Below, one piece after another: positions 13,706-31,291 of a stretch of DNA of 32,000 nt. Each line of letters begins with the position of its first letter. The stretch's first letter is position 1. This stretch comes from Candidatus Woesearchaeota archaeon. GTDB lineage: Archaea; Nanobdellota; Nanobdellia; Nanobdellales; CAZNIQ01. The stretch spans positions 1-32,000 of the forward strand of contig CAZNIQ010000003.1 in NCBI GenBank assembly GCA_964573185.1, written 5' to 3'. The notes under the pieces are model-generated. The model ran no database searches. It had not been told where the DNA came from and was given only the letters and a program-made list of their open reading frames with translations. The translations under genes and the position numbers were made by a program.

Positions 13706-14299
13706 ATGTATTACAAAAGCAATGAGGAAGAGTTCTTCAATTTTTACAGAAGAGTAGCTGAAAAAATAAGACCTAAAATTTATATAGGGGTTTTAGGTGG
13801 AGGAACCCAACATATTTTCTTTTTGAAATACTCTAGAATCACTATTTTAATAGACTTAAACTTGAAGCAAATAGAATATATAAAAGATTATAGGGATAAA
13901 GATTGTTCCTATATTTCAGAAAAACATAGCAAATACCCTATTTTTCCAGAATATGTATATCAAATTTGCTTGAAGTACGGAGACGTCTTAAAGTTAACTT
14001 CTGAAGAAGAATTAATTAATGCAGATATTTGGAAGATCCCCGTAAGAAAGGCAGATTTGATTTATCTTTCAAACGTACCTGATTACTTGCTAGATAAGTT
14101 TTATAGAAGAAGGGAGTATCAGGAAGGAATTAAGACTTTAGTTAAAAAATTAGAAGAATTGCTGGAAATCTCGAATTACATTTTATTTGTCAATATGTAT
14201 ACACATTTATGGTTTTTGTATTCTAAGCTTCAAAGAATTCTAGAAAGGAAATATAAGGTTGTAAGATATAAGGATGCATATGTGGTTGGAAAAACCTGA
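13706..14299 (+). CDS. hypothetical protein, weakly Rossmann/class-I-methyltransferase-like
   Basis: IGVLGGGTQ (motif I-like), ILIDLN (acidic beta2 end) and ADLIYLSNVPDYL (motif IV-like). The assignment is tentative. Confidence 0.4.
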   Translation: MYYKSNEEEFFNFYRRVAEKIRPKIYIGVLGGGTQHIFFLKYSRITILIDLNLKQIEYIKDYRDKDCSYISEKHSKYPIFPEYVYQICLKYGDVLKLTSEEELINADIWKIPVRKADLIYLSNVPDYLLDKFYRRREYQEGIKTLVKKLEELLEISNYILFVNMYTHLWFLYSKLQRILERKYKVVRYKDAYVVGKT

Positions 14300-15791
14300 C
14301 ATTCATTGGAAAGCTTATGATGTTTTAGCTCACCAAATTGTAGGATTAACAATTGATTTCGGAGAAGCTGATATAGATTTTGTTTGGAGAACTATAAAAA
14401 GATGTTACCTGTATAAAGATTTAACTTATGAAGAATTCTTGAAATTGCTTGAATTTTTAGATTCTTTAAAGTTAATAAAGTTTGATAAAGAAAATAAAAA
14501 GATAACAAAAACTAGAAAGGGATTTTTCTATTATTTAGAAAATGTTTCAATGATTCCAGATGAAAAATCATATGATGTAATAGATATTAACACTAGAACA
14601 AAAATAGGTATTTTACATGAGGAATTTGTTGCTAAGCATGGGGAGCCAGGTACAATATTTATTTTAAGAGGTTTGCCTTGGAAAATAGAAAAAATAGAAA
14701 AAGATAAAATATATGTTTCATTGGAAAAAGATTTTGAAAGTGCTATACCATCTTGGGAAGGAGAATTAATTCCAGTACCTTTCGAGGTTGCACAACTAGC
14801 TACTGAATTAAAAAAAGAAAATTTAGAGAAATTTGAGGAATTAAAGAATCAAAAATATTGGTTTATACCTGATAAAAACAAAATCTTTATAGAATCATAC
14901 AAAGATTTTATAATAATCCATTCTCCTTTTGGTTCAAAAGTTAATGATACGTTATCAAGGCTATTGGCTTATATCCTTTCAAAAGAATATGGTTTAGTCG
15001 TTGGTTTAAAAACAGACCCTTATAGAATTATTCTGAAAGGAAACATATCTAAAGAAAAAGTGAAAGAAACTTTAGAAAGTTTACCAGAGGATATTGAAAA
15101 TATATTAAAAGAAGCTTTATTTTATATGGATTATTTTTTATGGAGGTTTAAGCATGTAGCTAGAAGATTTGGTATAATATCTAAAAAAGCAGAATATTCT
15201 AAAGGATTCTTAAGAAGACTAGCTGAAAGTTTAAAAGATACTTTTGTTGTAGAGGAAACTTTCAAAGAAATCTTTACAGAAAAGCTGGATATTGAGAGAA
15301 CTAAAGAAATTATAAAGAAAATAAAAGAAGGAGAAATAAAGATTGAAATTATTAATAAAGATAAGCCAAGTCCTTTAGCGATACTTGGATTGGAAACATA
15401 CATATCTGATATAATGTTAGCTGATAGATATAAGGAGATTATAAGGTTAGTTAAAGAGAGATTAGAGAACACCGAATTAATATTTGTTTGTATGAATTGT
15501 AAAAGAATATACAAAATGAAAGTAAAAGATTGGAAGCCATTTAAATGCGTATGTGGTTCAGAATATTTTGGAGTTGTGAAAAGAGAGGAAGATATCAAAA
15601 AAGAAGAAGTTCTTTATGCTACAGCGGATTTATTGAAGCAATGTGGTAAGAAATTCCTTTTAATATATGCAGGCAAAGGAATTAGTTATACTGTAGCAGC
15701 TCATTTATGCTCAAAGAAATACGAAAATGAAGAGCAATTAATTTTAGATATTATTGAGTTTGAGAAAAAGTTTTTGAAAAGAAGATTTTAA
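14274..15791 (+). CDS. Lhr-type large helicase-related protein, C-terminal half only (winged-helix + DEAD/H-associated domain + Zn ribbon)
   Basis: It begins with YDVLAHQIVGLTIDFGEADIDFVWRTIKRCYLYKDLTYEEFLKLLEFLDS, which matches the WH/DEAD_assoc segment that follows RecA2 in Lhr helicases. It has a C-terminal CMNC...CVCG zinc ribbon. No helicase motifs (Walker A, DEAH) occur in this ORF or upstream. Confidence 0.7.
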   Translation: MHMWLEKPDIHWKAYDVLAHQIVGLTIDFGEADIDFVWRTIKRCYLYKDLTYEEFLKLLEFLDSLKLIKFDKENKKITKTRKGFFYYLENVSMIPDEKSYDVIDINTRTKIGILHEEFVAKHGEPGTIFILRGLPWKIEKIEKDKIYVSLEKDFESAIPSWEGELIPVPFEVAQLATELKKENLEKFEELKNQKYWFIPDKNKIFIESYKDFIIIHSPFGSKVNDTLSRLLAYILSKEYGLVVGLKTDPYRIILKGNISKEKVKETLESLPEDIENILKEALFYMDYFLWRFKHVARRFGIISKKAEYSKGFLRRLAESLKDTFVVEETFKEIFTEKLDIERTKEIIKKIKEGEIKIEIINKDKPSPLAILGLETYISDIMLADRYKEIIRLVKERLENTELIFVCMNCKRIYKMKVKDWKPFKCVCGSEYFGVVKREEDIKKEEVLYATADLLKQCGKKFLLIYAGKGISYTVAAHLCSKKYENEEQLILDIIEFEKKFLKRRF

Positions 15792-17034: not shown

Positions 17035-17343
17035 TTACCTTTTTATAACTTTCATTTCAACTTGTACCCCCTCTGGTATCGGAATTCTCATTAATTCTCT
17101 TATAGTTCTTTCATCCATTGCTATATCTATTAATCTCCTATGTATTCTTAGCTGGTATGTGACATAATACTTCTTTCCCCTAGTTCCAGTATTTGACATT
17201 GTTGAAATTCTCAATATTTTTGTTGGTAGTGGTATTGGACCTCTCATTTCTACTCCAGTTTTCTGAACAATCTTCTTTATTTCATCAATTACTTGATTTA
17301 ACTTACCAACATCGGTGGAAGTTAATTTAATGCGGATGTACAT
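17035..17343 (-). CDS. rps10: 30S ribosomal protein S10 (uS10)
   Basis: 102 aa: IRIKLTSTD...GPIPLPTK...HRRLIDI, downstream of tuf as in the str cluster. Confidence 0.92.
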   Translation of the reverse strand: MYIRIKLTSTDVGKLNQVIDEIKKIVQKTGVEMRGPIPLPTKILRISTMSNTGTRGKKYYVTYQLRIHRRLIDIAMDERTIRELMRIPIPEGVQVEMKVIKR

Positions 17344-17359
17344 AAGAAAAAAGAGAAGT

Positions 17360-18685
17360 TTATTTGATTTGTATTTCCTTCTTCTTGGTTACCTTTATAC
17401 ACATTCCTGCTGCAACAGTTCTTCCCATATCTCTTATAGCAAATCTTGCTAATTGTGGTATAAATGATACTTCTTCAATTACTAAAGGTCTTGTTGGTTG
17501 TACTGTTATTATTGCTGCGTCACCAGGCTTTATGAATTGTGGGTTTTGCTCTGCTACCTTACCTGTCTTAGGATCTAGCTTAGCATCGATAGATACTATC
17601 TTACAAGCTACTGCTGCTGTGTGGACGTGGAATACAGGTGTATATCCGGGAGCTATTACAGAAGGGTGCCATAGAACTATTATTTGTGCCTTAAATTCTT
17701 CTGCAACAGTTGGTAATGGTTCTCCTATTTTACCTATAACATCTCCTCTTGAAATATCTCTCTTTTCAACACCTCTTATGTTTATACCTATGTTATCTCC
17801 AGCTACAGCTTCTTCTAATGGTTGATGATGCATTTCTATAGATCTTACTTCACCTACAACTCCATTTGGCTTCTTTGAAGGTAATATAATTACTTTGTCT
17901 CCAACTCTTACTCTTCCAGTTTCTACTTTTCCTACAGGTACAGTACCTACACCCTTAATTGAATATACATCTTGTATTGGCATTCTGAATGGCTTATCTA
18001 TTGGTCTTGGAGGTTCTTCTAATAAATCAAAAGCTTCATATAATGTCGGTCCATTGTACCATGGCATCTTATCGGATTTTTTCACAATGTTATCTCCATA
18101 GTAGGCAGAAGCAGGTATTATAGCTTTAATAGCTTTTTCAGGGATTCCTAATAGTTTAAATATTTTTAATACCATATTCTTAACTTCTTCAAATCTCTTT
18201 TGATCATAATTTACTGTGTCCATTTTGTTTATTACAATAATGTATTGATTTATTCCTAGAACTTTTGTTAATATAATATGTTCTCTTCCTTGTCCTTCCG
18301 GTCCTAAAGCAGTCTCAGCTTCACCAGGTTTTGCAGATACAACAAGTACAGCAGCATCTGCTTGCTTTGCGCCAGTAATCATGTTCTTAATGAAATCTCT
18401 ATGTCCAGGAGCATCTATAATTGTAATTTCATATTTCTTTGTTTCAATCTTATAATGAGAAATATCTATTGTTAAACCTCTTTGTCTCTCTTCCTTTAAT
18501 CTATCCATGATAAAAGCAAATTCAAACGTTTCTTTTCCCAATTCTTGTGCTAATTTCTTTAATTCTTCCAAGGTTTTCTGGTCAATCAAACCCAAATCTA
18601 CTAATAATCTTCCAATTGTAGTTGACTTTCCGTTATCTACGTGCCCTACGAATACTATGTTCAAGTGTGGCTTTTGTCTAGGCAT
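17360..18685 (-). CDS. tuf: translation elongation factor EF-1 alpha (aEF-1A)
   Basis: GHVDNGKST, DAPGHRDF and NKMD GTPase motifs. 441 aa. Confidence 0.97.
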   Translation of the reverse strand: MPRQKPHLNIVFVGHVDNGKSTTIGRLLVDLGLIDQKTLEELKKLAQELGKETFEFAFIMDRLKEERQRGLTIDISHYKIETKKYEITIIDAPGHRDFIKNMITGAKQADAAVLVVSAKPGEAETALGPEGQGREHIILTKVLGINQYIIVINKMDTVNYDQKRFEEVKNMVLKIFKLLGIPEKAIKAIIPASAYYGDNIVKKSDKMPWYNGPTLYEAFDLLEEPPRPIDKPFRMPIQDVYSIKGVGTVPVGKVETGRVRVGDKVIILPSKKPNGVVGEVRSIEMHHQPLEEAVAGDNIGINIRGVEKRDISRGDVIGKIGEPLPTVAEEFKAQIIVLWHPSVIAPGYTPVFHVHTAAVACKIVSIDAKLDPKTGKVAEQNPQFIKPGDAAIITVQPTRPLVIEEVSFIPQLARFAIRDMGRTVAAGMCIKVTKKKEIQIK

Positions 18686-18715
18686 GAGAATGAATTAAAG
18701 AAAAAATTTATAAAG

Positions 18716-20938
18716 TTATACCAATTCTGCGTTTACGTCTAATCCTTTTCTCTTTCTTATTTCTTCAACTACTTTTGGTAATAATTCATCTGGAAGCTTC
18801 TCATAAGTCTGATCTACTAGATACCAGACACCCCTTCCGGATGTAGCAGATCTTAATTCATCTGTAAATCCAAACATTTCCGCTACAGGCACTTTTGCTT
18901 TTATCTTAGTAACATCCTCTTCCATTTGAACATCCAATACCTGACCTCTCCTTTTTGTTACTAAATTTATGGCTTCAGACATATAATCTGGAGGAACTAC
19001 TATTTCGATTATCTGTACTGGTTCATATAGAATTATACCTCCTTGTCTCATTGCTTCTCTTATGGCCATTCTAGTAGCTGGAATTATCTGTCCTGGGCCT
19101 CTATGTATAGGATCTTCATGTAATACAGCATCTACTAGCTTTACTTTTAGGCCCATACAAGGTTCTCTTGCTAATGGTCCCGCATCCATTACTGATTTGA
19201 ATCCTTCAATTATCATCTCAATTACTTCTCCTATATGTACTATACCTCTTGTCATATCTAAGAACATGTTATCTCTATAAACATACCTAACTCTTCTAGC
19301 TTCTTCTTTATCCATTCCCAATTCTTCTACAAATACTTTCCAAAGATCCGATCCTTCTTTTATTCTTCCTTCAGGTATTTTTCCTTCTTTAATCAATTGT
19401 CTTAGCTTATGTAATTGTTCTTCAGGTATGGGTTCAACAACAATATATAATTTGTTGTGCTTGTTCGGTGATTTTCCTTCTACTGGTCCTGCAGGTTTCC
19501 TTACAGATTCTCTATAAACAACTATTGGTGGAGATGTTTTTACGGGAATCTTAAAATCGTTCTTAATTCTGTATTCAATGATTTCTAAATGCAAATCACC
19601 TAAACCAGAAACAAGGATCTCACCAGTTTCTTGATTTATTTCTACCTTGATTGTAGGATCTTCTTTTTCAAGCAACTTCAGTGTTTCAATTAATTTGGGC
19701 AAATCTTGTGGGTTTTCTGGTTCGAAAGCTTTTGTAACAACAGGATCTAACCAATGCTTCAATTCTTCAAATGGTTCTATTTGTGGAATTTCTTCAGGAT
19801 TCTCTATTTTAACAATAGTTTCTCCCGGTCTTATTTCTCTTATACCTGTTAAAGCAATAATGTTTCCAGCTTTTACTTCTTCTACAGGTAATCTTTGAAT
19901 ACCTTTCCAGACAGCTAGCTGTTGAATTCTTACTTTCTTTTTGGCAGTAACTAAATAGACAAGATCTCCTTTTCTAAGAGTTCCAGACCAAATTCTTGCA
20001 GTAGCTATTAATTGTTTAGAAACCTTATCAATTATAACATTTGTAACGTTTATGACACAAGGACCGTTTGGGTCACAATTTAACATTGCTTGTCCATACT
20101 TTGAATTTATATCTCCTTTCCATATCTTTGGTATTCTATATTTTTGTGCTTCTACGGGGGAAGGTAAATGTCTAACAACCATATCTAGAACTACTTTATA
20201 CACAGGAGCTTTCTTTGCAGCAGCTTCTTTTAATTTCTCTTTATCATTTCCATATTTTTCATAAATCTCAATTATATCTTTAAATGAAACACCTGTTTTC
20301 TGCATGAAAGGCACAGATAAAGCCCAATGATATTTTGCTGAGCCAAAAGCTACAGAGCCGTCTTGAACCCTTACCATCCATTTGTCTTTAAACTCTGGAG
20401 GAGCATATTTTCTGATTAAAGCATTAACATCTTTTACTATTTTAGCAATTCTTTCCATTATTTTTTCGGGAGGCAATTGTAATTCAGTTATGGCTCTATC
20501 AACTTTATTTATAAATAGAACAGGCTTAACATATTCTTTCAAGGCAGTTCTTAACACAGATTCTGTCTGTGGCATTACGCCGTCTACAAAATCTACTACA
20601 ACTATTGCCCCATCAATAGCTCTTGCAGCTCTTGTAACTTGTCCAGAGAACTCAACGTGACCGGGAGTATCTATTAAGTTAATTAGATATTCTTTTCCTT
20701 CGTATTTATGAATCATAGAAACAGCAGCACCGTAAACTGTCATTTCTCTTTGCCTTTCAGTTTCATGCCACCAAGTAAACATCGCCTCACCTGCTAATTG
20801 TTCTGAGAGCATTCCTGCTCCAGCTAGTAGATTATCTGTTAATGTTGTTTTTCCATGATGTATATGTGCTATAATACCGATATTTCTTATTTGCTCAGGC
20901 TTATTCATAAGTTCCAATACTTTCTTCGTAAGATCCAT
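18716..20938 (-). CDS. fusA: translation elongation factor EF-2 (aEF-2)
   Basis: AHIHHGKTT, DTPGHVEF and NKVD motifs, with the diphthamide-region HEDPIHRGPGQ. 740 aa. Confidence 0.97.
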   Translation of the reverse strand: MDLTKKVLELMNKPEQIRNIGIIAHIHHGKTTLTDNLLAGAGMLSEQLAGEAMFTWWHETERQREMTVYGAAVSMIHKYEGKEYLINLIDTPGHVEFSGQVTRAARAIDGAIVVVDFVDGVMPQTESVLRTALKEYVKPVLFINKVDRAITELQLPPEKIMERIAKIVKDVNALIRKYAPPEFKDKWMVRVQDGSVAFGSAKYHWALSVPFMQKTGVSFKDIIEIYEKYGNDKEKLKEAAAKKAPVYKVVLDMVVRHLPSPVEAQKYRIPKIWKGDINSKYGQAMLNCDPNGPCVINVTNVIIDKVSKQLIATARIWSGTLRKGDLVYLVTAKKKVRIQQLAVWKGIQRLPVEEVKAGNIIALTGIREIRPGETIVKIENPEEIPQIEPFEELKHWLDPVVTKAFEPENPQDLPKLIETLKLLEKEDPTIKVEINQETGEILVSGLGDLHLEIIEYRIKNDFKIPVKTSPPIVVYRESVRKPAGPVEGKSPNKHNKLYIVVEPIPEEQLHKLRQLIKEGKIPEGRIKEGSDLWKVFVEELGMDKEEARRVRYVYRDNMFLDMTRGIVHIGEVIEMIIEGFKSVMDAGPLAREPCMGLKVKLVDAVLHEDPIHRGPGQIIPATRMAIREAMRQGGIILYEPVQIIEIVVPPDYMSEAINLVTKRRGQVLDVQMEEDVTKIKAKVPVAEMFGFTDELRSATSGRGVWYLVDQTYEKLPDELLPKVVEEIRKRKGLDVNAELV

Positions 20939-21138
20939 TGTGTAACGTACATAGCAAAATTTTTAAATGAAGGGTAAAATTATTTACTACCTATTGGTTA
21001 TTTTATTTTTAAAAATTTTGTTGTTCAGAAAAGCATAATCCTACATAAATTAACCTAGATTATTTTGATCAAATCTTTCAATTTTCCAAAAGAGGCATTC
21101 GAAATATAGAAAATTTTTAATAACTTTTGTAATTTTAG

Positions 21139-21168
21139 AAGGTCGTATAATTTTAGTTATACGACCTT
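21139..21168. other. candidate XerA recombination site (dif-like): perfect 12-bp inverted arms with a 6-bp spacer
   Basis: AAGGTCGTATAA-TTTTAG-TTATACGACCTT, with arms that are exact reverse complements. The architecture (ATAA-N6-TTAT inner ends) parallels E. coli dif GGTGCGCATAA-TGTATA-TTATGTTAAAT. It lies 1.2 kb upstream of xerA in the longest non-coding gap of the window. Confidence 0.45.
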
Positions 21169-21192
21169 ACCCAAAATAAATTTATTAAATTT

Positions 21193-21210
21193 TACTACTA
21201 GTTAGTAGTA
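21193..21210. promoter_or_regulatory. 8-2-8 inverted repeat abutting the start codon of the orphan gene (possible operator or 5' hairpin)
   Basis: TACTACTA-GT-TAGTAGTA ends 2 nt before the ATG at 21213. It sits between an A/T-rich TATA-like stretch (about 21173-21190) and the start codon. Confidence 0.35.
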
Positions 21211-21212
21211 AT

Positions 21213-22316
21213 ATGGAAAAATTAGAAAATACTCTTCAAAGGATGGGTTACCAAGTGATAGTTACACAGCGAGCAGGAAAGCATATAAAAGTACCCGGAC
21301 TACCAGAATTAAAAGAACAAGAGGTTATAAAGCTTTATTATAGATTAGAAAATATTGAGGACATAGAAGACGTTGAAGAAAAGCTACCTATTGTATCCAA
21401 AAGAATTCTAGAAATGATAAATAGGTTAAAACCTTTAATTGACAGTGGCAAAATTAGAGTTAAATATGATGAAAAGGGGAGGTTGCTATCAAAAATTAAT
21501 CTCCTCTTCGCTATATATGTGCCGGGATACCACTTTGTAGTTTACGTTCCTTATGATATAAACATTCTTAAAGAAACTCTGAAAAGGACGATTGATGCTC
21601 CTTACAGTAAATTGGTAATTAAGTTAGGAAAAACTTTAAAGCATCAAAGAATACCCTTAAAAGAAGAAGATCTAGAAGCAATTATAGATTTAGCTTTAAA
21701 TGAGATCAAAAGAGAATTGTCTTCTTTAAAAGAAAACTATAACTATTACAAAAGGTATGTAAACAATATAGAAAGATCTCCAGATTACAAAACGGAACTA
21801 ATAAAAATAGCGATAAGAAAAGTGGGAGCTAGTTTAAATAAAGGAAGAGCCTTAGAGTTTGGTAGGCTAGAAGGAGGTAGAGTTTGTTTTACTGAGGATA
21901 ATATTTGTGTAGAGCTTTCTAAAAAGGATTATGAACTTGCAAAGAAAAGAGTAAAACAGAATCTTGAAAAGGAGCTTCAAGATATATCTAATAAAATTAC
22001 TATATTAGAAAAGTATTATAAAAGGGTAACAACCCTCCTTGCTCAAAGAAAATATTTGGATGCTCTAAGAATGTTAAAAGAGTTATATCAAAGATTCTCC
22101 TATTTAGGATACTCCCGCTATATAGAATCTATAAAAATAGAGGGTAACAATGCGTACGTAACAAATGAAAAATATGAAGATGTACCAGATTCCTTAATTG
22201 ACACCATTTCTATTACAAAGAAAATTTCAGATAGAATTTATATAAGTTACATTCCTTCTAAAGAAGAATGGGCCAAGAAAATAGAAAAATTGTGTAAAGA
22301 GCAATTAAATCTTTAG
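21213..22316 (+). CDS. hypothetical protein (orphan), N-terminal alpha/beta region plus long coiled-coil segments
   Basis: 367 aa with no recognisable catalytic motif. Heptad-rich regions include EIKRELSSLKENYNYYKRY and KQNLEKELQDISNKITILEKYYKRVTTLL. The reading frame is clean and oligo-T tracts follow it. Confidence 0.6.
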   Translation: MEKLENTLQRMGYQVIVTQRAGKHIKVPGLPELKEQEVIKLYYRLENIEDIEDVEEKLPIVSKRILEMINRLKPLIDSGKIRVKYDEKGRLLSKINLLFAIYVPGYHFVVYVPYDINILKETLKRTIDAPYSKLVIKLGKTLKHQRIPLKEEDLEAIIDLALNEIKRELSSLKENYNYYKRYVNNIERSPDYKTELIKIAIRKVGASLNKGRALEFGRLEGGRVCFTEDNICVELSKKDYELAKKRVKQNLEKELQDISNKITILEKYYKRVTTLLAQRKYLDALRMLKELYQRFSYLGYSRYIESIKIEGNNAYVTNEKYEDVPDSLIDTISITKKISDRIYISYIPSKEEWAKKIEKLCKEQLNL

Positions 22317-22318
22317 TA

Positions 22319-22334
22319 TTTTTTGACCGTTTTT
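22319..22334 (+). terminator. oligo-T tracts (T6, T5), a candidate archaeal intrinsic terminator
   Basis: TTTTTTGACCGTTTTT lies directly after the TAG stop at 22314-22316. Archaeal RNAP terminates at oligo-T runs. Confidence 0.3.
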
Positions 22335-22386
22335 GTCCTATTAAAAAGCAAAATTAAAGAAATCTGAAAGTATAAAAAATATATTA

Positions 22387-23199
22387 ATGTTAGAAGAATT
22401 TGCTACTTATTTAGAACTTCAAGGTAGATCTAAGAATACAATAAGAACTTATTGTTGGATAGTTGAAAATTTCTTAAAATATATAAATAAAGATCCTTAT
22501 GCGATTTCTAAAGAAGATATCTTTAGATATCTAGCATACCTTAAGAAAAAATGGAATTATGATTCGAATAGCATAAGATTGGTAGTTATTGCCTTAAAAC
22601 AATTTTTTAAATTTATAGGGAGAGAGGACCTATTAATTTATTTGAAATCTCCAAAGATAGATAAAAGGTTACCGAAATTCATTACATATGAAGAGTTCTT
22701 GCGTTTAGTAGGAGCTTGCGATAATCCAAGAGATAAACTTATGATAAAGTTCCTTTTTTATACTGGTGTAAGAGTTTCCGAACTAGTAAATCTTAAAATA
22801 GATGATATTCTCTGGGAAGAAGGATTTGTAAAGGTAAAAGGAAAAGGAGGGAAAGAAAGAATAATACCCCTTCCAGAATCTCTATTAAAAGAATTAAAGG
22901 AATACGTTGAAACAAGAAAAATTAAGTCCGAATATCTTTTTCCTTCTAAAAGAGGTAGTAAACTCAGTACAAGGCAGGTACAAAGAATTATTAACAAAGC
23001 TAGGATAAAAGCTGGGATTCGAAAAAAGGTGACACCTCATATTCTAAGACACTCTTTAGCAACTTTTTTATTATCAAAAGGCGTAGATATAAGAATTATT
23101 CAGGAAATACTTGGACATTCTTCTTTAAGTGTAACGCAAATATATACACACGTAGTACCAAAGCAGCTTAAGGAGATATATAAAAAGGTTTTCGAATGA
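22387..23199 (+). CDS. xerA: tyrosine recombinase XerA (XerC/D family)
   Basis: N-terminal SAM-like core-binding domain. The catalytic set is complete: TGVRVSEL (Arg), KGKGGKERIIPL (Lys), HILRHSLAT (H-x-x-R) and LGHSSLSVTQIYTHV (His and Tyr nucleophile). 270 aa. Confidence 0.88.
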   Translation: MLEEFATYLELQGRSKNTIRTYCWIVENFLKYINKDPYAISKEDIFRYLAYLKKKWNYDSNSIRLVVIALKQFFKFIGREDLLIYLKSPKIDKRLPKFITYEEFLRLVGACDNPRDKLMIKFLFYTGVRVSELVNLKIDDILWEEGFVKVKGKGGKERIIPLPESLLKELKEYVETRKIKSEYLFPSKRGSKLSTRQVQRIINKARIKAGIRKKVTPHILRHSLATFLLSKGVDIRIIQEILGHSSLSVTQIYTHVVPKQLKEIYKKVFE

Positions 23200-23229
23200 C
23201 TTTAAAAATTTAACCTTAAACAGGTACTA

Positions 23230-23469
23230 ATGCCTAAAAAGGTTGATATCACTAAGCACATTTTAGTTCCAAAACATGAAAAACTTTCTGAAGAAGAGGC
23301 TAAGAAATTATTAGAACAACTTGGCATTTCAAAATTACAATTGCCCAGAATAAAAAAGAATGATCCAGCGATAAAACACTTAAATCCTAAACCAGGAGAT
23401 ATTATTAAAATTATTAGAAAGAGTCCTACGGGTGGGGAGTATGTTTATTATAGAGTTGTTGTAGAATGA
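23230..23469 (+). CDS. rpoH: DNA-directed RNA polymerase subunit H (Rpo5)
   Basis: [42 protein letters not shown]...[22 protein letters not shown]. Its stop overlaps the rpoB'' start (ATGA). Confidence 0.92.
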
Positions 23470-24953
23470 AGCCATACAGAATTCTTACAAAGGCATACTA
23501 TAGAGAATACTCTCCAGTAAGATCTCAAATAGAGTCATTTAATTATTTCGTAGAGTACGAAATGCAAAAGATTATTGATGAAATAGGAGAGGTAGAAATG
23601 ACAATAACGCCACCAGGAGTTAAAGAAGTTAAAGTAAAATTTGGCAAAGTATCTATAGGAAAACCAGATGTTGTAGAGCCAGATGGGATAAGAAGAATAA
23701 TTTATCCTCAAGAAGCAAGGATTAGGAATCTAACATACTCCTCTTCAGTTTATCTTGAATACGAAATGTACTATGATGATAACCTGAGAGAGAAAGGGAT
23801 TGTAGAAATAGGGAGGATTCCTATTATGGTTAGATCGAAGTATTGTAATCTTTATGGTTTATCTGAAGAAGAATTAATCAAATTAGGTGAGGATCCTACA
23901 GATCCAGGTGGTTACTTTATAATCAATGGTACTGAAAGAGTTGTCGTAATGACAGAAGAGTTATTTACAAATAGGTTATATGTTGAGGAAGAGAAATCGG
24001 GTTCTGCAAAATACGTTGGAAGAATCTTTTCTGAAGCAGGTATCCTAAACGTTCCGCATAAAATAGAATTAATGAAAGATGGTTTATTCATGATTTCATT
24101 TGGAAAAATAAAAAGAACGCCTGTTTTCGTTATCTTAAAGGCCTTAGGAATGGAAACCGACCAAGAAATAGCCCAAGCAATAGATCCTGAGAGACTCTGG
24201 GATGAGGTTTTAGTAAATCTATATGAATATCAAGAAATAAAAAATGCTGATGAAGCAGTAAAGTGGTTAGCAAATCATTGGCACATTCCTGGACCTGAAG
24301 AATTAAGAAAGGAGAGAGTATATGAAATTTTAGATAAATATTTATTGCCACATATAGGACAATCTCCTGCAGATAGATATGCAAAAGCTTGGAATCTCTG
24401 TAAATATATAAAGAAGATGTTATTAGTAGCTTATGGTGAATTGCCAGAAGATGATAAGGATCATTATATGAATAAACAAATAAGATTAGCAGGTGATTTG
24501 CTTTCAGAGATGTTTAGAGTAGTATTTAAACTTTTGATAAATGATGCAAAATACCAATATGAAAGATTAGTAAAGAGAGGAAAAATTCCAACTTTCCGAT
24601 CTGTCATAAGATCAAAAATATTTACGGAAAGATTTGAAACTGCAATGGGTACTGGACAATGGACAAGAAAAAGAGTAGGTGTTTCTCAAATGCTTGATAG
24701 AATGAATAAACTTGCTACGATATCTCATCTAACAAGAATTTGGTCTCCTTTAGAGGCAGAAGGAGAAATGTATGAAATACGTATGCTTCACGGTACTCAT
24801 TGGGGAAGACTTTGTCCTATAGAAACTCCAGAAGGAAAGAACGTAGGTTTAAGAAAGAATCTAGCTTTATTAGCAAGAATTTCACCTGAGGTTCCTGAAG
24901 CGGAAGTTTTAAATAAGTTAAAGGAACTCGGATTAGAACCTTACAAAAAATGA
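23466..24953 (+). CDS. rpoB2: DNA-directed RNA polymerase subunit B'' (N-terminal part of split Rpo2)
   Basis: 495 aa: [14 protein letters not shown], ...[11 protein letters not shown]..., [30 protein letters not shown]. It ends with an ATGA overlap into B'. Confidence 0.95.
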
Positions 24954-26764
24954 AGGCGGAAGTTTACTTAAATGATAAATTTGTAGGCTATGTAGAAAAT
25001 CCAGAGCAGTTCGTAAGAGCTATTAGGGAAGCTAGAAGGAGGGGCCAATTACCTCCAACAGTAAATGTATATTATGATGAAGAGTCCAATAGAGTATTCG
25101 TTTATTGTAATAAAGGAAGATTATTAAGACCATTGATTGTTGTTGAAAATGGAAAACCTAAGTTAACAAAGGAACATCTTGAGAAATTAGTAAAAGGAGA
25201 ATTAACTTGGGAAGATCTTGAAAAGCAAGGAATAATAGAGTGGTTGGATCCTGCTGAAGAAGAAAATGTTTATGTTGCTTTAGACGAGAAAGAATTAACA
25301 CCGGAACATACCCATTTAGAGATTGGTCCTCAAACTTTCTTTAGCATAGTTACTTCTTTAGCTCCATATGCGAATTATAATCAGACTGTAAGATTAAACA
25401 GAGGAATAAGACCTCAAAAACAAGCGTTATCTATCTACACATATAATTTCTTATTACGTTTTGATTCAGATGTATCTATTTTGTATTATCCACAGGAACC
25501 ATTAGTAAGAACTTTCACTCATGAGATTTTCAGAGATTATGATATCATTGGTCAAAATGTTGTAGTTGCTGTAATGGTTGGTCACGGATATAACATGGAA
25601 GATGCTTTAGTATTTAATAAAGGTTCTATAGATAGAGGTCTATTCAGAGGAGTATTCTTTAGACCTTATGAAGCTGAAGAATTAAAGTATCCTGGTGGTC
25701 TAAAAGATGAAATCAGAATTCCAGATCCAGATGTTAGGAATTATAAGGGTTCTGAAGCTTATAGGAATTTAGAAGAGGATGGAATAGTTTATCCGGAAGC
25801 AGAAGTAAAAGGAAAAGATGTTTTAGTTGGAAGAGTTTCTCCACCTAGATTTACAGAGATAGCAGCTTTTGAAACATTGACAGTTACAGGCTTAACCTTA
25901 AGAGATACATCCGTTACTGTGAGATCTGAAGAAAAGGGTATTGTTGATGCAGTGTTTATAACTGAAACAAAAGAAGGAAACAAATTAGTAAAAGTTAGAG
26001 TTAGAGATTTAAGAATTCCAGAGTTAGGTGATAAATTCTGTACAAGATCTGGACAGAAAGGAGTAATAGGTTTAATCTTACCAGAGTCAGATATGCCTTT
26101 TACAGCTTCTGGAGTTAAACCAGATATAATATTTAACCCAATGGGATTGCCTTCAAGACAGACTGTTGGTTATCTATTAGAAGCTTTAGCTGGAAAAGTA
26201 GGAGCATACTCTGGAAGATACATTGACGGTACTCCATGGGATGAAGAGCCGGAAGAAGCATTGAGAAAAGAATTATTAAAATTAGGTTTTAGAGAAGATG
26301 GAACTGAAACTATGTATGATCCTATATCTGGTGAAGAATTCAAAGTGAAAATATTCGTTGGAAACATCTATTATATGAGATTGAAACATATGGCTGCAAA
26401 TAAGTTGCATGCAAGAGCTAGAGGTCCATATACTTTGCTAACAAGACAGCCTACTGAAGGTAAAGCAAAAGAAGGAGGTTTGAGGTTAGGAGAAATGGAA
26501 AAGGATGTTATATTAGCTTATGGAGCACCAATACTATTAAAGGAGAGATTTTCTTCTGATAAAACTATAATTTATGTTTGTGAAAAATGTGGTGCAATGG
26601 CTATTGATGATACTATTAGAAAAAGAAAATACTGTCCTGTATGTGGAGAAACTGAAAGAATAAAGCCCGTAGAGGTTTCTTATGCATTTAAGTTATTCCT
26701 AGACGAACTGATCTCTTTGGGCATCTGGCCAAGGTTAAGGGTTAAACCGAAGTACGAAGAATAA
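24950..26764 (+). CDS. rpoB1: DNA-directed RNA polymerase subunit B' (C-terminal part of split Rpo2)
   Basis: 604 aa: GYNMEDALVFNKGSIDRG, GDKFCTRSGQKGV, NPMGLPSRQTVG, RLGEMEKD and a C-terminal CEKCG...CPVCG zinc ribbon. Confidence 0.95.
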   Translation: MKAEVYLNDKFVGYVENPEQFVRAIREARRRGQLPPTVNVYYDEESNRVFVYCNKGRLLRPLIVVENGKPKLTKEHLEKLVKGELTWEDLEKQGIIEWLDPAEEENVYVALDEKELTPEHTHLEIGPQTFFSIVTSLAPYANYNQTVRLNRGIRPQKQALSIYTYNFLLRFDSDVSILYYPQEPLVRTFTHEIFRDYDIIGQNVVVAVMVGHGYNMEDALVFNKGSIDRGLFRGVFFRPYEAEELKYPGGLKDEIRIPDPDVRNYKGSEAYRNLEEDGIVYPEAEVKGKDVLVGRVSPPRFTEIAAFETLTVTGLTLRDTSVTVRSEEKGIVDAVFITETKEGNKLVKVRVRDLRIPELGDKFCTRSGQKGVIGLILPESDMPFTASGVKPDIIFNPMGLPSRQTVGYLLEALAGKVGAYSGRYIDGTPWDEEPEEALRKELLKLGFREDGTETMYDPISGEEFKVKIFVGNIYYMRLKHMAANKLHARARGPYTLLTRQPTEGKAKEGGLRLGEMEKDVILAYGAPILLKERFSSDKTIIYVCEKCGAMAIDDTIRKRKYCPVCGETERIKPVEVSYAFKLFLDELISLGIWPRLRVKPKYEE

Positions 26765-26793
26765 ATTTAAACTTTACTTTTTAAACTTTCATA

Positions 26794-29409
26794 ATGACCA
26801 CTCCTTTTAAGCTTTCTGAAATTACCTTTAGATTGGTAGATCCTGAAACAATAAGAAATTTTGCTGTAGTTAAGATTGTAACTCCAGAACTTTATGATAA
26901 AGATGGATTTCCAGTAGAAGGGGGCTTGATGGATCCCAGAATGGGTGTTATAGATCCAGGATTAAGATGTAGGACTTGTGGTAAAAGATTTGGAGAGTGT
27001 CCCGGACATTTTGGATATATAGAATTAGCAAGACCTGTAATACACGTTTTGTATGCTGAATTAATTTATGATATCTTAAGAATAGTTTGTCATAATTGTG
27101 GAAGGATAAAATTACCTGAAGAAAAAATAAAAAGATACCTCAAAAGATTTGAATATTTAAAGAAAGTATACGGTCCAGTTACGGCTTTTCAACAGTTAAG
27201 AAAGAAATTGTTAGAAGAAACAAAGAACGTTACAAAGTGTCCTCATTGTGGATACGAAAATCCAAAAGTAGAATTCCAAAAACCATATAAATTCTTTATT
27301 TATGAAAAAGAAGGAAAGAGAAGATTAACTCCCATTGAAATAAGAGAAATATTAGAGAAGATACCTGATGATCATGCTAGGGCTTTAGGTTTTGGAAAAG
27401 ACGTTAGACCAGAATGGATGGTATTAACTGTTTTACCAGTTCCTCCTCCAACAGTAAGACCCTCTATAATTTTGGAAACAGGAGAGAGAGCAGAAGATGA
27501 TTTAACACATAAATTAGCAGATATAGTTAGAACAAATCTTAAATTGCAAGAAGCAATAGCTACGGGTGCTCCTGAAATTATAGTAGAAGACTTATGGGAT
27601 TTGTTACAATACCACGTTGCCACGTACTTTTATAATAATCTCCCAAATGTTCCAAAAGCTAGACACAGATCTGGTAGACCTTTGAAATCTCTTGTTGAAA
27701 GAATATCTGGAAAAGAGGGAAGGTTAAGATACAATCTTTTGGGTAAGAGAGTAGATTTCTCTGCAAGAGCAGTAATATCTCCTGATCCAAGAATAGAAAT
27801 AGATGAGGTAGGAGTTCCTATAGAAGTTGCAATGGAATTAACCGTTCCGGAAAGAGTTACTGAATGGAATATAGAGTGGTTAAGGAAATTGGTTTTGAAT
27901 GGTCCAAATAAGTATCCTGGTGCGAATTATGTTATAAGGCCTGATGGAAAGAGGTTCAGAATTACTGATGAAAACAAAGAAATGTTAGCAAACGAACTAC
28001 AACCTGGATGGATCGTTGAAAGACATCTAATGGATGGAGATATTGTACTATTCAATAGATATCCCTCTGTACACAGGATGAATATGATGGCTCATAGAGT
28101 TAGGGTTTTACCGGGTAGGACATTTAGAATAAATCCCTTTATCTGTACTCCATATTACGCTGATTTTGATGGAGATGAAATGAATATACATGTTCCACAG
28201 ACCGAAGAAGCTAGAACAGAAGCGAGATTATTGATGAATCCAAGATATCATATTGTCTCCCCAAGATATGGTTTAGCAATAGTAGGATTAATACAGGATG
28301 CTATATCCGGATTATATCTCCTAACACAAGATGATACGAAATTGTCTTTTGATGAAGCAGCACAATTGTTATATGATGCTGGAATACCTTTGGATAAGTT
28401 CAAAAGATTAATGGAAAAAGCTAAGAAAGAGGGAAGAGATTATTTAACTGGAAAAGAAGTATTTTCATGTGTTTTACCGGATGATCTTAACTTTGAATAT
28501 GAAGCAAAAGGAATAAGATTTGTAATTGAAAATGGAATGTTAAAAGAAGGAGTTGTAACTAAAGATATTGTAGGTGCAGAAAAGGGACATTTGATAAGAT
28601 ATGTTTATGAGAAGTACGGACCGGACTTTACAATCAAGTTTATACACCAATTAGGCTTACTAGGTATTGAATATCAATGGAAACATGGATTGTCTTTAAG
28701 CTTATCTGAATGGGATCTACCTAAAGAAGCTGAAGAGGAGATAAAGAGGATAAAAGAGGAAGCTAGAAAAGAAATAGAGAAGCTAATTGAGAAATACAGA
28801 AAAGGAGAAATAACACCTATGCCAGGTAAAACCGTTAAAGAAACATTTGAAACAATGGTTTTGCAAGTATTAAATAAAGTAAGAGATGAAGTAGGAAAAA
28901 TTGTTGAAAAATATCTAAAGAAAAATACAAATACGTTTATAATGTTAAAATCTGGAGCTAGAGGTAATATATTAAATATAGCGCAGATGGTTGGTGTTGT
29001 AGGACAACAAGCTTTAAGAGGACAAAGAATAGAGTTTGGATATAAAGATAGAAACTTACCAATATTTAAGAAAGGAGATCTTTCACCTGAAGCAAAAGGT
29101 TGGATAGATGTTGGATACAGACATGGATTAAGACCTTGGGAATTCTTCTTCCAGTCTATGGTAGGAAGAGATGCTTTAATGGATACTGCCGTAAGAACAG
29201 CTTATTCCGGATATCTATATAGAAGATTGGTTAACGCAACATATGATGTAAAAGTTTGGTATGATGGTACTGTTAGAGACTCATGGAACAGATTGATACA
29301 ATTCTTGTACGGAGAAGATGGATTGGATGTTCAGAAAACAGAAAAAGGAAAATTAAATATTGATAGAATAATAAAGGAAGTCTTAAAAGAATATCAACAA
29401 AAGAAATAA
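26794..29409 (+). CDS. rpoA1: DNA-directed RNA polymerase subunit A' (Rpo1N)
   Basis: 871 aa: zinc motifs CRTCGKRFGECPGHFG and the catalytic YADFDGDEMNIHVPQ (NADFDGD variant). Confidence 0.97.
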   Translation: MTTPFKLSEITFRLVDPETIRNFAVVKIVTPELYDKDGFPVEGGLMDPRMGVIDPGLRCRTCGKRFGECPGHFGYIELARPVIHVLYAELIYDILRIVCHNCGRIKLPEEKIKRYLKRFEYLKKVYGPVTAFQQLRKKLLEETKNVTKCPHCGYENPKVEFQKPYKFFIYEKEGKRRLTPIEIREILEKIPDDHARALGFGKDVRPEWMVLTVLPVPPPTVRPSIILETGERAEDDLTHKLADIVRTNLKLQEAIATGAPEIIVEDLWDLLQYHVATYFYNNLPNVPKARHRSGRPLKSLVERISGKEGRLRYNLLGKRVDFSARAVISPDPRIEIDEVGVPIEVAMELTVPERVTEWNIEWLRKLVLNGPNKYPGANYVIRPDGKRFRITDENKEMLANELQPGWIVERHLMDGDIVLFNRYPSVHRMNMMAHRVRVLPGRTFRINPFICTPYYADFDGDEMNIHVPQTEEARTEARLLMNPRYHIVSPRYGLAIVGLIQDAISGLYLLTQDDTKLSFDEAAQLLYDAGIPLDKFKRLMEKAKKEGRDYLTGKEVFSCVLPDDLNFEYEAKGIRFVIENGMLKEGVVTKDIVGAEKGHLIRYVYEKYGPDFTIKFIHQLGLLGIEYQWKHGLSLSLSEWDLPKEAEEEIKRIKEEARKEIEKLIEKYRKGEITPMPGKTVKETFETMVLQVLNKVRDEVGKIVEKYLKKNTNTFIMLKSGARGNILNIAQMVGVVGQQALRGQRIEFGYKDRNLPIFKKGDLSPEAKGWIDVGYRHGLRPWEFFFQSMVGRDALMDTAVRTAYSGYLYRRLVNATYDVKVWYDGTVRDSWNRLIQFLYGEDGLDVQKTEKGKLNIDRIIKEVLKEYQQKK

Positions 29410-29410
29410 A

Positions 29411-30538
29411 ATGTTACCGAAATCTATACAAGAAGAATTGGAAAAGAAATTAAAGGAACTTAATGTTCCTGAAGAAGTAAAAGAAGAGATTAGAAGAAGG
29501 GTTATAGAATTATATGAAAAATCTAAGATAGAACCCGGGGAAGCTGTTGGCATAGTTGCTGCACAATCCATTGGTGAACCTTCAACACAGACAATTCTTA
29601 GGGCTTTCCACTGGGTCGGTATGGCAGAATTCCAGGTCACTTTAGGTTTGCCAAGATTAATAGAAATCTTAGATGCAAAGAAAAAGCCCAAATTCCCAAT
29701 GATGCGAATATACTTAAAGGAGCCTTATAAGAATGATCCAGAAAAAATAAAAGAAGTTGCTTTAAAGATTAAAGAGCTAAGATTAGAAGAGTTGATGAGA
29801 GAAGTAACGATAAATCTTTTAGATAATACTATTGAAGTATATTTAGATCCAGAGAAATTAAATAAAAATAAAATAACTTTTGAGGAGGTAGTTAAAGGAA
29901 TTAGGAAAAGTTTTAGATCAGGTTCTATAAAAGATTATTCAGAAAAAGAGTTAAAAATAGTTATTAAGCCTAGAAAGGAAAAACCTACATTAAAGGATTT
30001 ATATCAATTAAAGCAAAAAGTAAAAGATATTGTTGTGAGAGGAATTAAAGGAATAAAAGACGTTTTACCTATTTATGATGATAAAGAAGGAGAATATGTT
30101 ATTTTAACTTATGGTACAAATCTAAAGGAAGTTTTGAAATTAGAAGAAGTTGATGAAACAAGAACTATATCTAATGATATACACGAAGTTGCGAAGGTTT
30201 TAGGAATTGAAGCTGCAAGGAACTTGATTATACAAGAAATAAAAAGAGTTTTGGAAGAACAAGGTTTAGAAGTAGATATTAGACATATAATGCTGTTTGC
30301 GGATCTTATGACTTGGTCTGGAACTGTAAAAGGAGTAACAAGATATGGTATTGTTAAGGATAAACCTTCCGTATTATCCAGAGCAGCATTCGAGACTCCT
30401 ATAAAGCATTTCTTAATAGCTTCAATAATTGAAGAAAAGGATGAGATGAAAGGAGTATTAGAAAATGTAATGGCAAATCAAATAGCACCTTTAGGAACAG
30501 GTATTGTAAAGCTTGCTTGGAAAGAAGAGAATAAATAA
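29411..30538 (+). CDS. rpoA2: DNA-directed RNA polymerase subunit A'' (Rpo1C)
   Basis: 375 aa: EPGEAVGIVAAQSIGEPSTQ (trigger-loop region) and the C-terminal ...NVMANQIAPLGTG. Confidence 0.95.
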   Translation: MLPKSIQEELEKKLKELNVPEEVKEEIRRRVIELYEKSKIEPGEAVGIVAAQSIGEPSTQTILRAFHWVGMAEFQVTLGLPRLIEILDAKKKPKFPMMRIYLKEPYKNDPEKIKEVALKIKELRLEELMREVTINLLDNTIEVYLDPEKLNKNKITFEEVVKGIRKSFRSGSIKDYSEKELKIVIKPRKEKPTLKDLYQLKQKVKDIVVRGIKGIKDVLPIYDDKEGEYVILTYGTNLKEVLKLEEVDETRTISNDIHEVAKVLGIEAARNLIIQEIKRVLEEQGLEVDIRHIMLFADLMTWSGTVKGVTRYGIVKDKPSVLSRAAFETPIKHFLIASIIEEKDEMKGVLENVMANQIAPLGTGIVKLAWKEENK

Positions 30539-30558
30539 CTTTTCTTTTTATATTTCTC

Positions 30559-30831
30559 ATGGTCGATCAAAAATTCATTGAAGAGTTAAGAAGATTGGTT
30601 AAGGAAAAGAAAGCAATTGTGGGATCAAATAGAACAATAAAGCTGTTGAAATTAGGAAAAATAGCAAAAGTTGTAATGGCAAGAAACGTTCCAGAAGATA
30701 TTAAAAAAGACATAGAGTATTATGCTAAGCTAGCTAACGCAGAAGTGGTCCAATTAGAAGTAGATAACGTTGAATTAGGAGCCATGGTTGGAAAACCGTT
30801 TAAAGTAACTGTTATAGGGATACCCAAATAA
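30559..30831 (+). CDS. rpl30e: 50S ribosomal protein L30e
   Basis: 90 aa: GSNRTIKLLKLGKIAKVVMARNVPEDIKKDIEYYAKLANAEVVQLEVDNVELGAMVGKPFKVTVIGI. It follows rpoA'' as in other archaea. Confidence 0.88.
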   Translation: MVDQKFIEELRRLVKEKKAIVGSNRTIKLLKLGKIAKVVMARNVPEDIKKDIEYYAKLANAEVVQLEVDNVELGAMVGKPFKVTVIGIPK

Positions 30832-30862
30832 TTTTTAAATAAAATTTTATATTCAATTAACA

Positions 30863-31291
30863 ATGCCTAATGGTCTCTTTGCTGGGAGGAAGTTAAGAAA
30901 AAACAGGAAGAAATTCAGATGGGCCAAAAAAGAATATAGAAGAAGGATGCTTAGATTAAAAGAAAAATATGATCCATTAGAAGGTGCCCCCATGGCTTCT
31001 GGTATTGTATTAGAGAAAGTAACTGTTGAAAGAAGACAGCCAAACTCCGGATTGATTAAATGTGTTAAAGTTCAATTAAAGAAAAATGGAAAGATAGTAA
31101 CAGCTTTTGCACCTGGTGATAAGGCTATAAAATATATAGATGAACACGATGAAGTTTTAATTGTAGGTATTGGAGGAAGAAAAGGAAGATCCTTAGGTGA
31201 TATTCCCGGAGTAAGATATAAAGTTGTACTTGTTAATGGGCAGCCATTAGAATTGTTAAGAAAAGGAAAGATAGAAAAAGCAAGAAGATAA
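30863..31291 (+). CDS. rps12: 30S ribosomal protein S12 (uS12)
   Basis: 142 aa: [49 protein letters not shown]...[11 protein letters not shown]. Confidence 0.93.

Follow-up and report, generated by a model that had tools for sequence, protein, structure and literature searches.

The closest described systems are archaeal dif sites, each served by a single, homomeric Xer recombinase. The dif of P. abyssi reads ATTGGATATAA-TCGGCC-TTATATCTAAA (PMC2958812), and that of T. kodakarensis, which was found as a ChIP-seq peak of XerA, reads TTTTGATATAA-TGTACC-TTATATGACAA (PMC11840125). These two sites, and dif2 of T. acidophilum, are 28 bp long and have near-palindromic arms of 11 bp, ending in TATAA and TTATA, on either side of 6 bp (‘11-6-11’). 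TAA-N6-TTA is the most conserved feature of archaeal dif (PMC11840125). In the Thermococcales, dif and xerA are unlinked, and dif lies at 122-142 degrees, which shows that a terminus position is no strict requirement in archaea (PMC2958812). Predicted dif sites of the Sulfolobales are close to xerA (Cortez et al. 2010, PMC2958812), dif-like elements of H. volcanii and H. salinarum lie upstream of the xerA operon (Yamaura et al. 2025, PMC11840125), and xerA/dif modules are mentioned in a 2017 review (PMC5357621). Bacteria, too, have systems in which one recombinase is linked to its own dif—XerS/difSL in streptococci and lactococci, and XerH/difH in Campylobacter and Helicobacter (PMC5357621). 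These differ from the archaeal kind in belonging to other recombinase subfamilies, in the lengths of their sites (31 bp for difSL), and in their dependence on FtsK. We know of no FtsK in archaea.

In this report, we describe a palindrome from a 32-kb stretch of archaeal DNA with a G+C content of ~30%. We refer to the whole of this stretch, as it was analysed, as ‘the window’. Judged by its sequence and its relatives, the palindrome is very probably the dif-type recombination site of a nanoarchaeon’s single Xer recombinase, XerA. We favor this reading because the arms are conserved, the core occurs once per genome in many archaeal lineages, adjacency to xerA recurs, and the site resembles validated archaeal dif sites. 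It shares the 28-bp, 11-6-11 plan, the TATAA/TTATA ends and the single homomeric recombinase with the P. abyssi, T. kodakarensis and T. acidophilum systems. Unlike the dif sites of P. abyssi and T. kodakarensis, it has an outer arm of GTCG rather than GGA or TGA, and its arms are perfectly symmetric. And unlike those of the Thermococcales generally, it is linked to xerA. In this last respect it resembles the candidates from the Sulfolobales, H. volcanii and H. salinarum, which likewise lie near the xerA gene or operon or upstream of it; it differs from them in that a 1.1-kb orphan gene stands between, although the arrangement is compact in a close relative. The site would be a credible dif for a lineage of uncultured Nanoarchaeota, a group with tiny genomes in which chromosome maintenance has been little studied. 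It leaves the current understanding of Xer and dif unchanged; dif is expected on archaeal chromosomes, and dif beside xerA is a known arrangement.

Anatomy and setting of the palindrome

The palindrome occupies positions 21139-21168 of the window and reads AAGGTCGTATAA-TTTTAG-TTATACGACCTT, two fully complementary arms of 12 nt around a spacer of 6 nt. The first-pass annotation had described it in these terms, correctly. No other perfect 11-6-11 or 12-6-12 palindrome exists in the window; the numbers expected per window, as means of 400 first-order Markov simulations, are 0.0325 for the shorter form and 0.0125 for the longer. Near-palindromes with no more than two mismatches number 21 besides this one, and are mostly A/T-rich sequences of low complexity. 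The arms of the present site contain 4 G/C in 11, a count that only one of those 21 equals or exceeds. The window contains the site once, and no second site at one mismatch or fewer to the arm. A stable cruciform or hairpin is predicted here (DNA fold, -11.5 kcal/mol; z = -5.6).

Viewed as a dif, the site consists of two inverted arms of ~11 bp and a 6-bp center, AGGTCGTATAA-TTTTAG-TTATACGACCT. The predicted left XerA-binding arm, AGGTCGTATAA, spans 21140-21150, and the predicted right arm, TTATACGACCT, spans 21157-21167; pairing runs one base beyond, to 21139 on the left and to 21168 on the right. Between them, at 21151-21156 and read on the plus strand, lies TTTTAG, an asymmetric 6 bp that we presume to be the region of strand exchange and so to give the site its polarity. 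Each arm has a 9-bp core (GTCGTATAA on the left, TTATACGAC on the right), and the inner ends, TATAA-N6-TTATA, contain the TAA-N6-TTA (ATAA/TTAT) typical of archaeal dif. The first-pass annotation had suggested a comparison with known archaeal sites, and this comes out in favor of dif. Besides the common 11-6-11 plan and the common ends, the right arm matches the right arm of the T. kodakarensis site (TTATATGACAA) at 8 of 11 positions, and that same T. kodakarensis arm, written as its reverse complement (TTGTCATATAA), has one mismatch to the core GTCGTATAA.

The site lies in a gap of 274 bp (20939-21212) between two divergent genes, aEF-2 on the minus strand (18716-20938) and an ORF of 367 aa on the plus strand. 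Two other apparently long gaps, 1009-1275 and 1936-2200, are occupied by ORFs of 81-82 aa, which makes this the longest non-coding stretch of the window. The sole ORF of at least 40 aa that touches the gap, 20855-20977 on the plus strand, overlaps the start of aEF-2 and stops well before the site. Both facts, the long non-coding stretch and the lack of an ORF at the site, had been reported at first pass, and both hold. Leftward, the minus strand carries aEF-2, EF-1alpha, S10 and Nop5; rightward, the plus strand carries the 367-aa ORF, xerA, rpoH, a split rpoB, rpoA’/A’’, L7Ae/L30e and S12. Cumulative GC skew, computed over these 32 kb only, has its minimum at ~21000, exactly where gene orientation switches. 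Because of this match with the change in transcription direction, local skew is uninformative at the 32-kb scale. Diverging neighbors and a local skew minimum are unlike a terminus of the bacterial type; to our knowledge, archaeal dif sites do not lie reliably at 180 degrees from the origin. Two other identities were considered and dropped—an RNA gene or tRNA, since ARAGORN and Rfam matched no tRNA and no RNA family anywhere in the window, and a replication origin (oriC, with ORB repeats), since none of the 20 larger proteins of the window has an Orc1/Cdc6 domain and the motif is unrepeated there.

A dif presupposes a cognate Xer recombinase in the same genome, and one is encoded nearby. The xerA gene (22387-23199, plus strand) specifies a tyrosine recombinase of 270 aa, presumed to be the enzyme of the site. 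It contains Phage_integrase and SAM-like domains (Pfam; PF00589, PF13495 and PF02899), and in the PDB it matches P. abyssi XerA (4A8E) best, over the full length, at E = 8.6e-72. T. acidophilum XerA (5HXY) follows at E = 1.1e-54. The active-site motifs R, K, HxxR, H and Y all align with these PDB matches, so that the gene, which had been placed 1.2 kb downstream of the site at first pass, is indeed there and is a true xerA; the distance is 1,218 bp, with one gene between. The nearest named relatives of the protein, at 57-61% identity, are those of Nanopusillus, Nanobsidianus and Nanobdella, with Pyrococcus at ~50%. Since these closest relatives are nanoarchaeal, we assign the DNA to an uncultured member of the Nanoarchaeota.

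Conservation among relatives and across genomes

Three metagenome contigs that encode an identical XerA also carry the site, and in a lineage-restricted scan of metagenomes the source population turned up in a single context. In contig L001 the site reads AGGTCGTATAA-TTTCAG-TTATACGACAT, one change from the window in the spacer and one in the outer arm. All of L001-L004 share the 9-bp core GTCGTATAA without change. Over 11.4 kb, L001 and the window differ at 37 positions, 16 of which are concentrated inside 21123-21172, a strain-variable patch that surrounds arm cores that are themselves intact. Between the two, the 16 bp that adjoin the arm on its left have been essentially replaced. In the window, the inner arm end, together with the spacer, is directly repeated within the patch as TAATTTTAG (21130-21138 and 21148-21156). 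The clustering may result from gene conversion or from repair at the site.

The closest distinct relative (L004, GCA_054017035.1), the XerA of which is 79% identical, has ATGTCGTATAA-GTTTCA-TTATACGACAC in the same divergent gap beside aEF-2. The distance from the site to the start of aEF-2 is 203 bp in L004, compared with 201 bp in the window. On its other side, the likely GTG start of xerA follows the L004 site after 68 bp (86 bp if the annotated ATG is used), and the orphan gene is absent between the two. An alignment of window and L004 shows three peaks of conservation, namely the aEF-2 promoter, a block around 21055-21085, and the site itself; the rest of the intergenic DNA is much less conserved, and similarity drops to background right after the right edge of the site. 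The block, common to window and L004, lies 115-145 bp upstream of the aEF-2 start, and may serve in regulation or as an accessory sequence to the site.

A more distant relative (L138; XerA 72% identical) has AGGTCGTTTAA-TGTCGG-TTATACGACCT near xerA, with a different left neighbor. Here the site is followed by an unrelated ORF of 114 aa and then by xerA, ~500 bp from the site. An isolated arm, AAGGTCGTATAA, is present in L138 at 871-882, 2 bp before the ATG of xerA. Since L138 pairs site and gene in a different genomic context, the two evidently stay together through rearrangement. Among all of these relatives the arm cores are kept (in L001-L004 and L138), while spacers and outer positions vary, and the changes in the outer arms are not compensatory. 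This combination indicates a protein-binding site in DNA rather than a hairpin in RNA, and it answers favorably the question of conservation in related genomes that the first-pass annotation had raised. Conserved arms with a freely varying spacer, the pattern of a dif, are found in L001, L004, L138, and 57-61 further archaeal genome loci, to which we now turn.

An exact scan for GTCGTATAA-N6-TTATACGAC, in the genomes of 185,579 species, one per species (596 Gb), found 101 loci, against ~9 expected in 596 Gb of uniform base composition. The source genome and that of L004 are not among the 101, both presumably being outside the collection. By record title, 57 loci are archaeal; four more have archaeal-type flanks, in bins that are probably mislabelled, hence the figure of 57-61. 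Archaea, we presume, form a small minority of the collection, and so the enrichment of the core in archaea is large. The archaeal loci come from the Poseidoniales and other marine group II, Thermoplasmata, Methanoperedens, Methanosarcinales, ANME-1, a Halobacteria MAG, a Nanoarchaeota MAG and a Thermoproteota MAG. Each of 56 archaeal MAGs has one site; L017 and L092, which look like a duplicate, are one site seen at two contig ends. A bin labelled ‘bacterium’ (DX1.bin10) has two different sites of Thermoplasmata type with the same spacer (L053 and L070); either more than one organism was binned together, or the genome has a pair of dif-like sites, a situation reported for T. acidophilum. The flanks of the loci lengthen the motif to A-T-GTCGTATAA (A in 65%, T in 56%), and the spacers are clade-specific, none of them palindromic.

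In ~20 loci the start of a Xer-type gene lies 19-230 bp from the site. Ten of these loci are archaeal, with the xerA start 19-121 bp away (L012, L019, L033, L042, L069, L075, L080, L091, L097 and L098), and the 5’ end of the gene invariably faces the site. The first-pass annotation had thought the linkage to xerA worthy of note if confirmed, which overstates its novelty, given the Sulfolobales, the haloarchaea and these ten MAGs. In the Poseidoniales and most Thermoplasmata, the same single-copy site is found away from xerA. A site ~0-250 bp upstream of the recombinase gene is the form a linked module would take; beside the ten archaeal loci and the 68 bp of L004 stand the ~500 bp of L138 and the 1,218 bp of the window. 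Site and xerA would form a loosely linked module, and in the present lineage the unrelated orphan has come between them. The core GTCGTATAA is common to single-copy sites in several archaeal phyla, often beside xerA, and could be a practical key with which to search archaeal MAGs for dif.

Bacterial records contain the core as well. Bdellovibrionales and CPR (Patescibacteria, Moraniibacteriota) MAGs have an identical site, inclusive of the spacer (GTTACA/TGTAAC), and in several Firmicutes MAGs the core lies 36-95 bp from a Xer-like gene. The loci of these two side groups are L028, L030, L051, L082 and L109, and L024, L041, L062, L067, L076, L102, L104 and L105; they may be single-recombinase modules or mobile elements. 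Viral contigs gave 14 exact-core matches, none with a Xer gene and none like this lineage. A full-text literature search for the motif returned nothing relevant.

Proposed action of the site and rival explanations

By homology with the XerA/dif systems of P. abyssi, T. acidophilum and T. kodakarensis, one XerA monomer would bind to each 11-bp arm. Two sites on a chromosome dimer would synapse in a XerA tetramer, and the catalytic tyrosines would cut where the arms meet the 6-bp TTTTAG spacer. Strand exchange by way of a Holliday junction would then convert the dimer to monomers. Identical arms would suit a homomeric enzyme, and the asymmetric spacer would set the polarity of the site. It was as the target of a single XerA that the palindrome was interpreted at first pass, and the comparative evidence sustains this much of that interpretation. 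It does not sustain the alternative offered with it, an operator for the orphan gene, which is contradicted by L004, where the site is kept at the orthologous position and the orphan is missing.

The orphan itself (21213-22316, plus strand; 367 aa) is lineage-specific and probably stands outside the recombination mechanism. In a search of 5.8 billion protein clusters it matched itself only; among 1.84 billion cluster representatives it has one homolog, 33% identical, that belongs to another MAG and an unrelated context, with neither a dif-like site nor xerA nearby. Pfam gave a sub-threshold match only. A single-sequence AlphaFold model is confident for a helical region alone (150-300), and Foldseek found nothing significant in the PDB with this model. 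Neither Pfam, nor homologs, nor the model, nor Foldseek revealed a functional link between orphan and site. Immediately upstream of the gene is a second perfect palindrome, of 9-2-9 form (TTACTACTA-GT-TAGTAGTAA, 21192-21211), which ends 1 nt before the ATG and is present in L001-L003, too. It is plausibly an operator or 5’ hairpin of the orphan gene, and for the role of orphan operator it is a better candidate than the 12-6-12 site.

How the orphan came to lie where it does bears on a further explanation, that dif is an insertion hotspot at which XerA captures foreign genes, in the manner of IMEX or cassettes, and that the orphan is such an insert. The content of the interval does differ in the three lineages: nothing in L004, the unrelated 114-aa ORF in L138, the orphan in the window. 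Synteny with L004 goes no farther than the right edge of the site, the lone arm of L138 sits at the far end of the insert there, and strain differences cluster around the site; were capture the explanation, the lone arm and the variable patch would be scars of insertion events. The situation also recalls the IMEX found at bacterial dif sites (CTX phage, GGI and TLC), where foreign DNA lies beside dif and varies in content among related lineages, but this likeness is speculative, for an IMEX insert is enclosed between dif and a second site or pseudo-site and has recognizable element genes. In the window no second site, full or degenerate, flanks the orphan (the best sequence in 22317-22386 is AAAGTATAA, 6/9 of the core) and no such genes are recognizable; L138 offers its lone arm only, which has no recognizable partner. 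The sole homolog of the orphan is not beside a dif-like site or xerA, no viral contig combines a related site with a Xer gene, and, with three lineages only, deletion in L004 explains the data equally well. We therefore doubt that the orphan was acquired in this way. That the dif-xerA interval is, throughout the clade, a Xer-dependent slot for gene capture, an archaeal counterpart of bacterial IMEX, strikes us as similarly unlikely. Of all that is described here, only this variable interval might have a wider meaning, as a sign of Xer-mediated gene capture among archaea, support for which is weak at present.

It is rather improbable that the site is instead an operator to which XerA binds to regulate its own gene, and here the orphan as well, with the true dif for dimer resolution elsewhere. 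Such autoregulation would account for a site 5’ of xerA, as in L004 and the ten further archaeal loci, and for the extra arm so close to the xerA ATG in L138; in the window, ~13 bp separate the end of the site from an A/T-rich, TATA-like stretch of the orphan gene downstream. An operator would not explain why the distance to xerA is unconserved, ranging from 19 bp to 1.2 kb and an intervening gene, nor why a full two-arm site with a 6-bp spacer, the geometry of a recombination substrate, is present. And because the Poseidoniales (like most Thermoplasmata) have their single-copy site elsewhere than beside xerA, it is not merely an element of the xerA promoter. The site may double as dif and operator.

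That the palindrome is the operator of an unrelated transcription factor, serving the orphan or aEF-2, or a chance or structural hairpin, is very improbable: the divergent promoter region and the stable predicted cruciform speak for it, but the site persists in L004 without the orphan, lies ~200 bp from the aEF-2 start and well beyond the conserved TATA-like region of that gene (~20955-20968), has a core that numerous unrelated archaea carry in one copy per genome, frequently next to xerA, shows no compensatory changes in its outer arms, and competes, for the orphan, with the 9-2-9 palindrome, a better candidate.

Other Nanoarchaeota and the xerA neighborhood

Among Nanoarchaeota, site and xerA are linked in this clade and in L069; the linkage was not seen in the Nanopusillaceae or in the other neighborhoods examined. 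In Nanopusillaceae (XerA ~60% identical), no such site occurs within 10 kb of xerA, which counts against the XerA/dif reading. The xerA flanks of L006, L007, L009, L139, L141, L143, L145 and L146 contain no site at five or fewer mismatches to the 22-nt arm consensus, the flanks covered being 10 kb on each side in three near-complete genomes and less in the other contigs. Nor do the three genomes that were read around xerA (N. acidilobi, N. aerobiophila and AP031373), whose membership in the scanned collection is unconfirmed, appear among the exact-core matches.

A second point against that reading is a DPANN contig from a sister sample (L113), which the lineage-restricted scan also picked up and which has AAC-GTCGTATAA-TTTCCG-TTATACGAC-ATT at 4490-4513, right after an ORF without an assigned function. 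The core is the same, spacer and outer arms are different, and there is no xerA within 10.6 kb. We considered whether this might be a second copy in the same organism; by tetranucleotide signature the contig is probably from another. Its tetranucleotide r is 0.89-0.94, compared with 0.96-0.99 within the clade, and it is no closer to the window than are unrelated DPANN contigs. The named proteins that best match an ATPase on L113 come from Nanoarchaeota and Aenigmatarchaeota, and the rest of the gene content is uninformative. About 90 bp downstream of the L113 site, at 4596-4668, is a G+C-rich stretch that looks like structured RNA and has no Rfam match. Upstream of xerA in Nanopusillus, a different G+C-rich element is conserved (L006, 9821-9942, minus strand; L145, ~2640-2800), with the inverted repeat CCCTACCTG...CAGGTAGGG; the L006 copy has a sub-threshold match to a C/D-box sRNA (snoR9, 33.6 bits, E = 2.6e-6).

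Across 17035-31291, the canonical archaeal cluster rpoH-rpoB-rpoA-L30e-S12-S7-EF2-EF1a-S10 is broken: its EF2-EF1a-S10 part has been turned around and now adjoins the dif/xerA/rpoH side. Elsewhere in the Nanoarchaeota (L006, L007, L009 and L139), xerA is found at the S7 or the EF-2 end of the same cluster. Breakpoints of rearrangement thus fall at the xerA locus. Farther to the left in the window, the ORF at 14274-15791 encodes only the C-terminal parts of an Lhr-type helicase (WH_Lhr and DEAD_assoc), without the helicase core, and may be part of a split gene, of the kind common in Nanoarchaeota.
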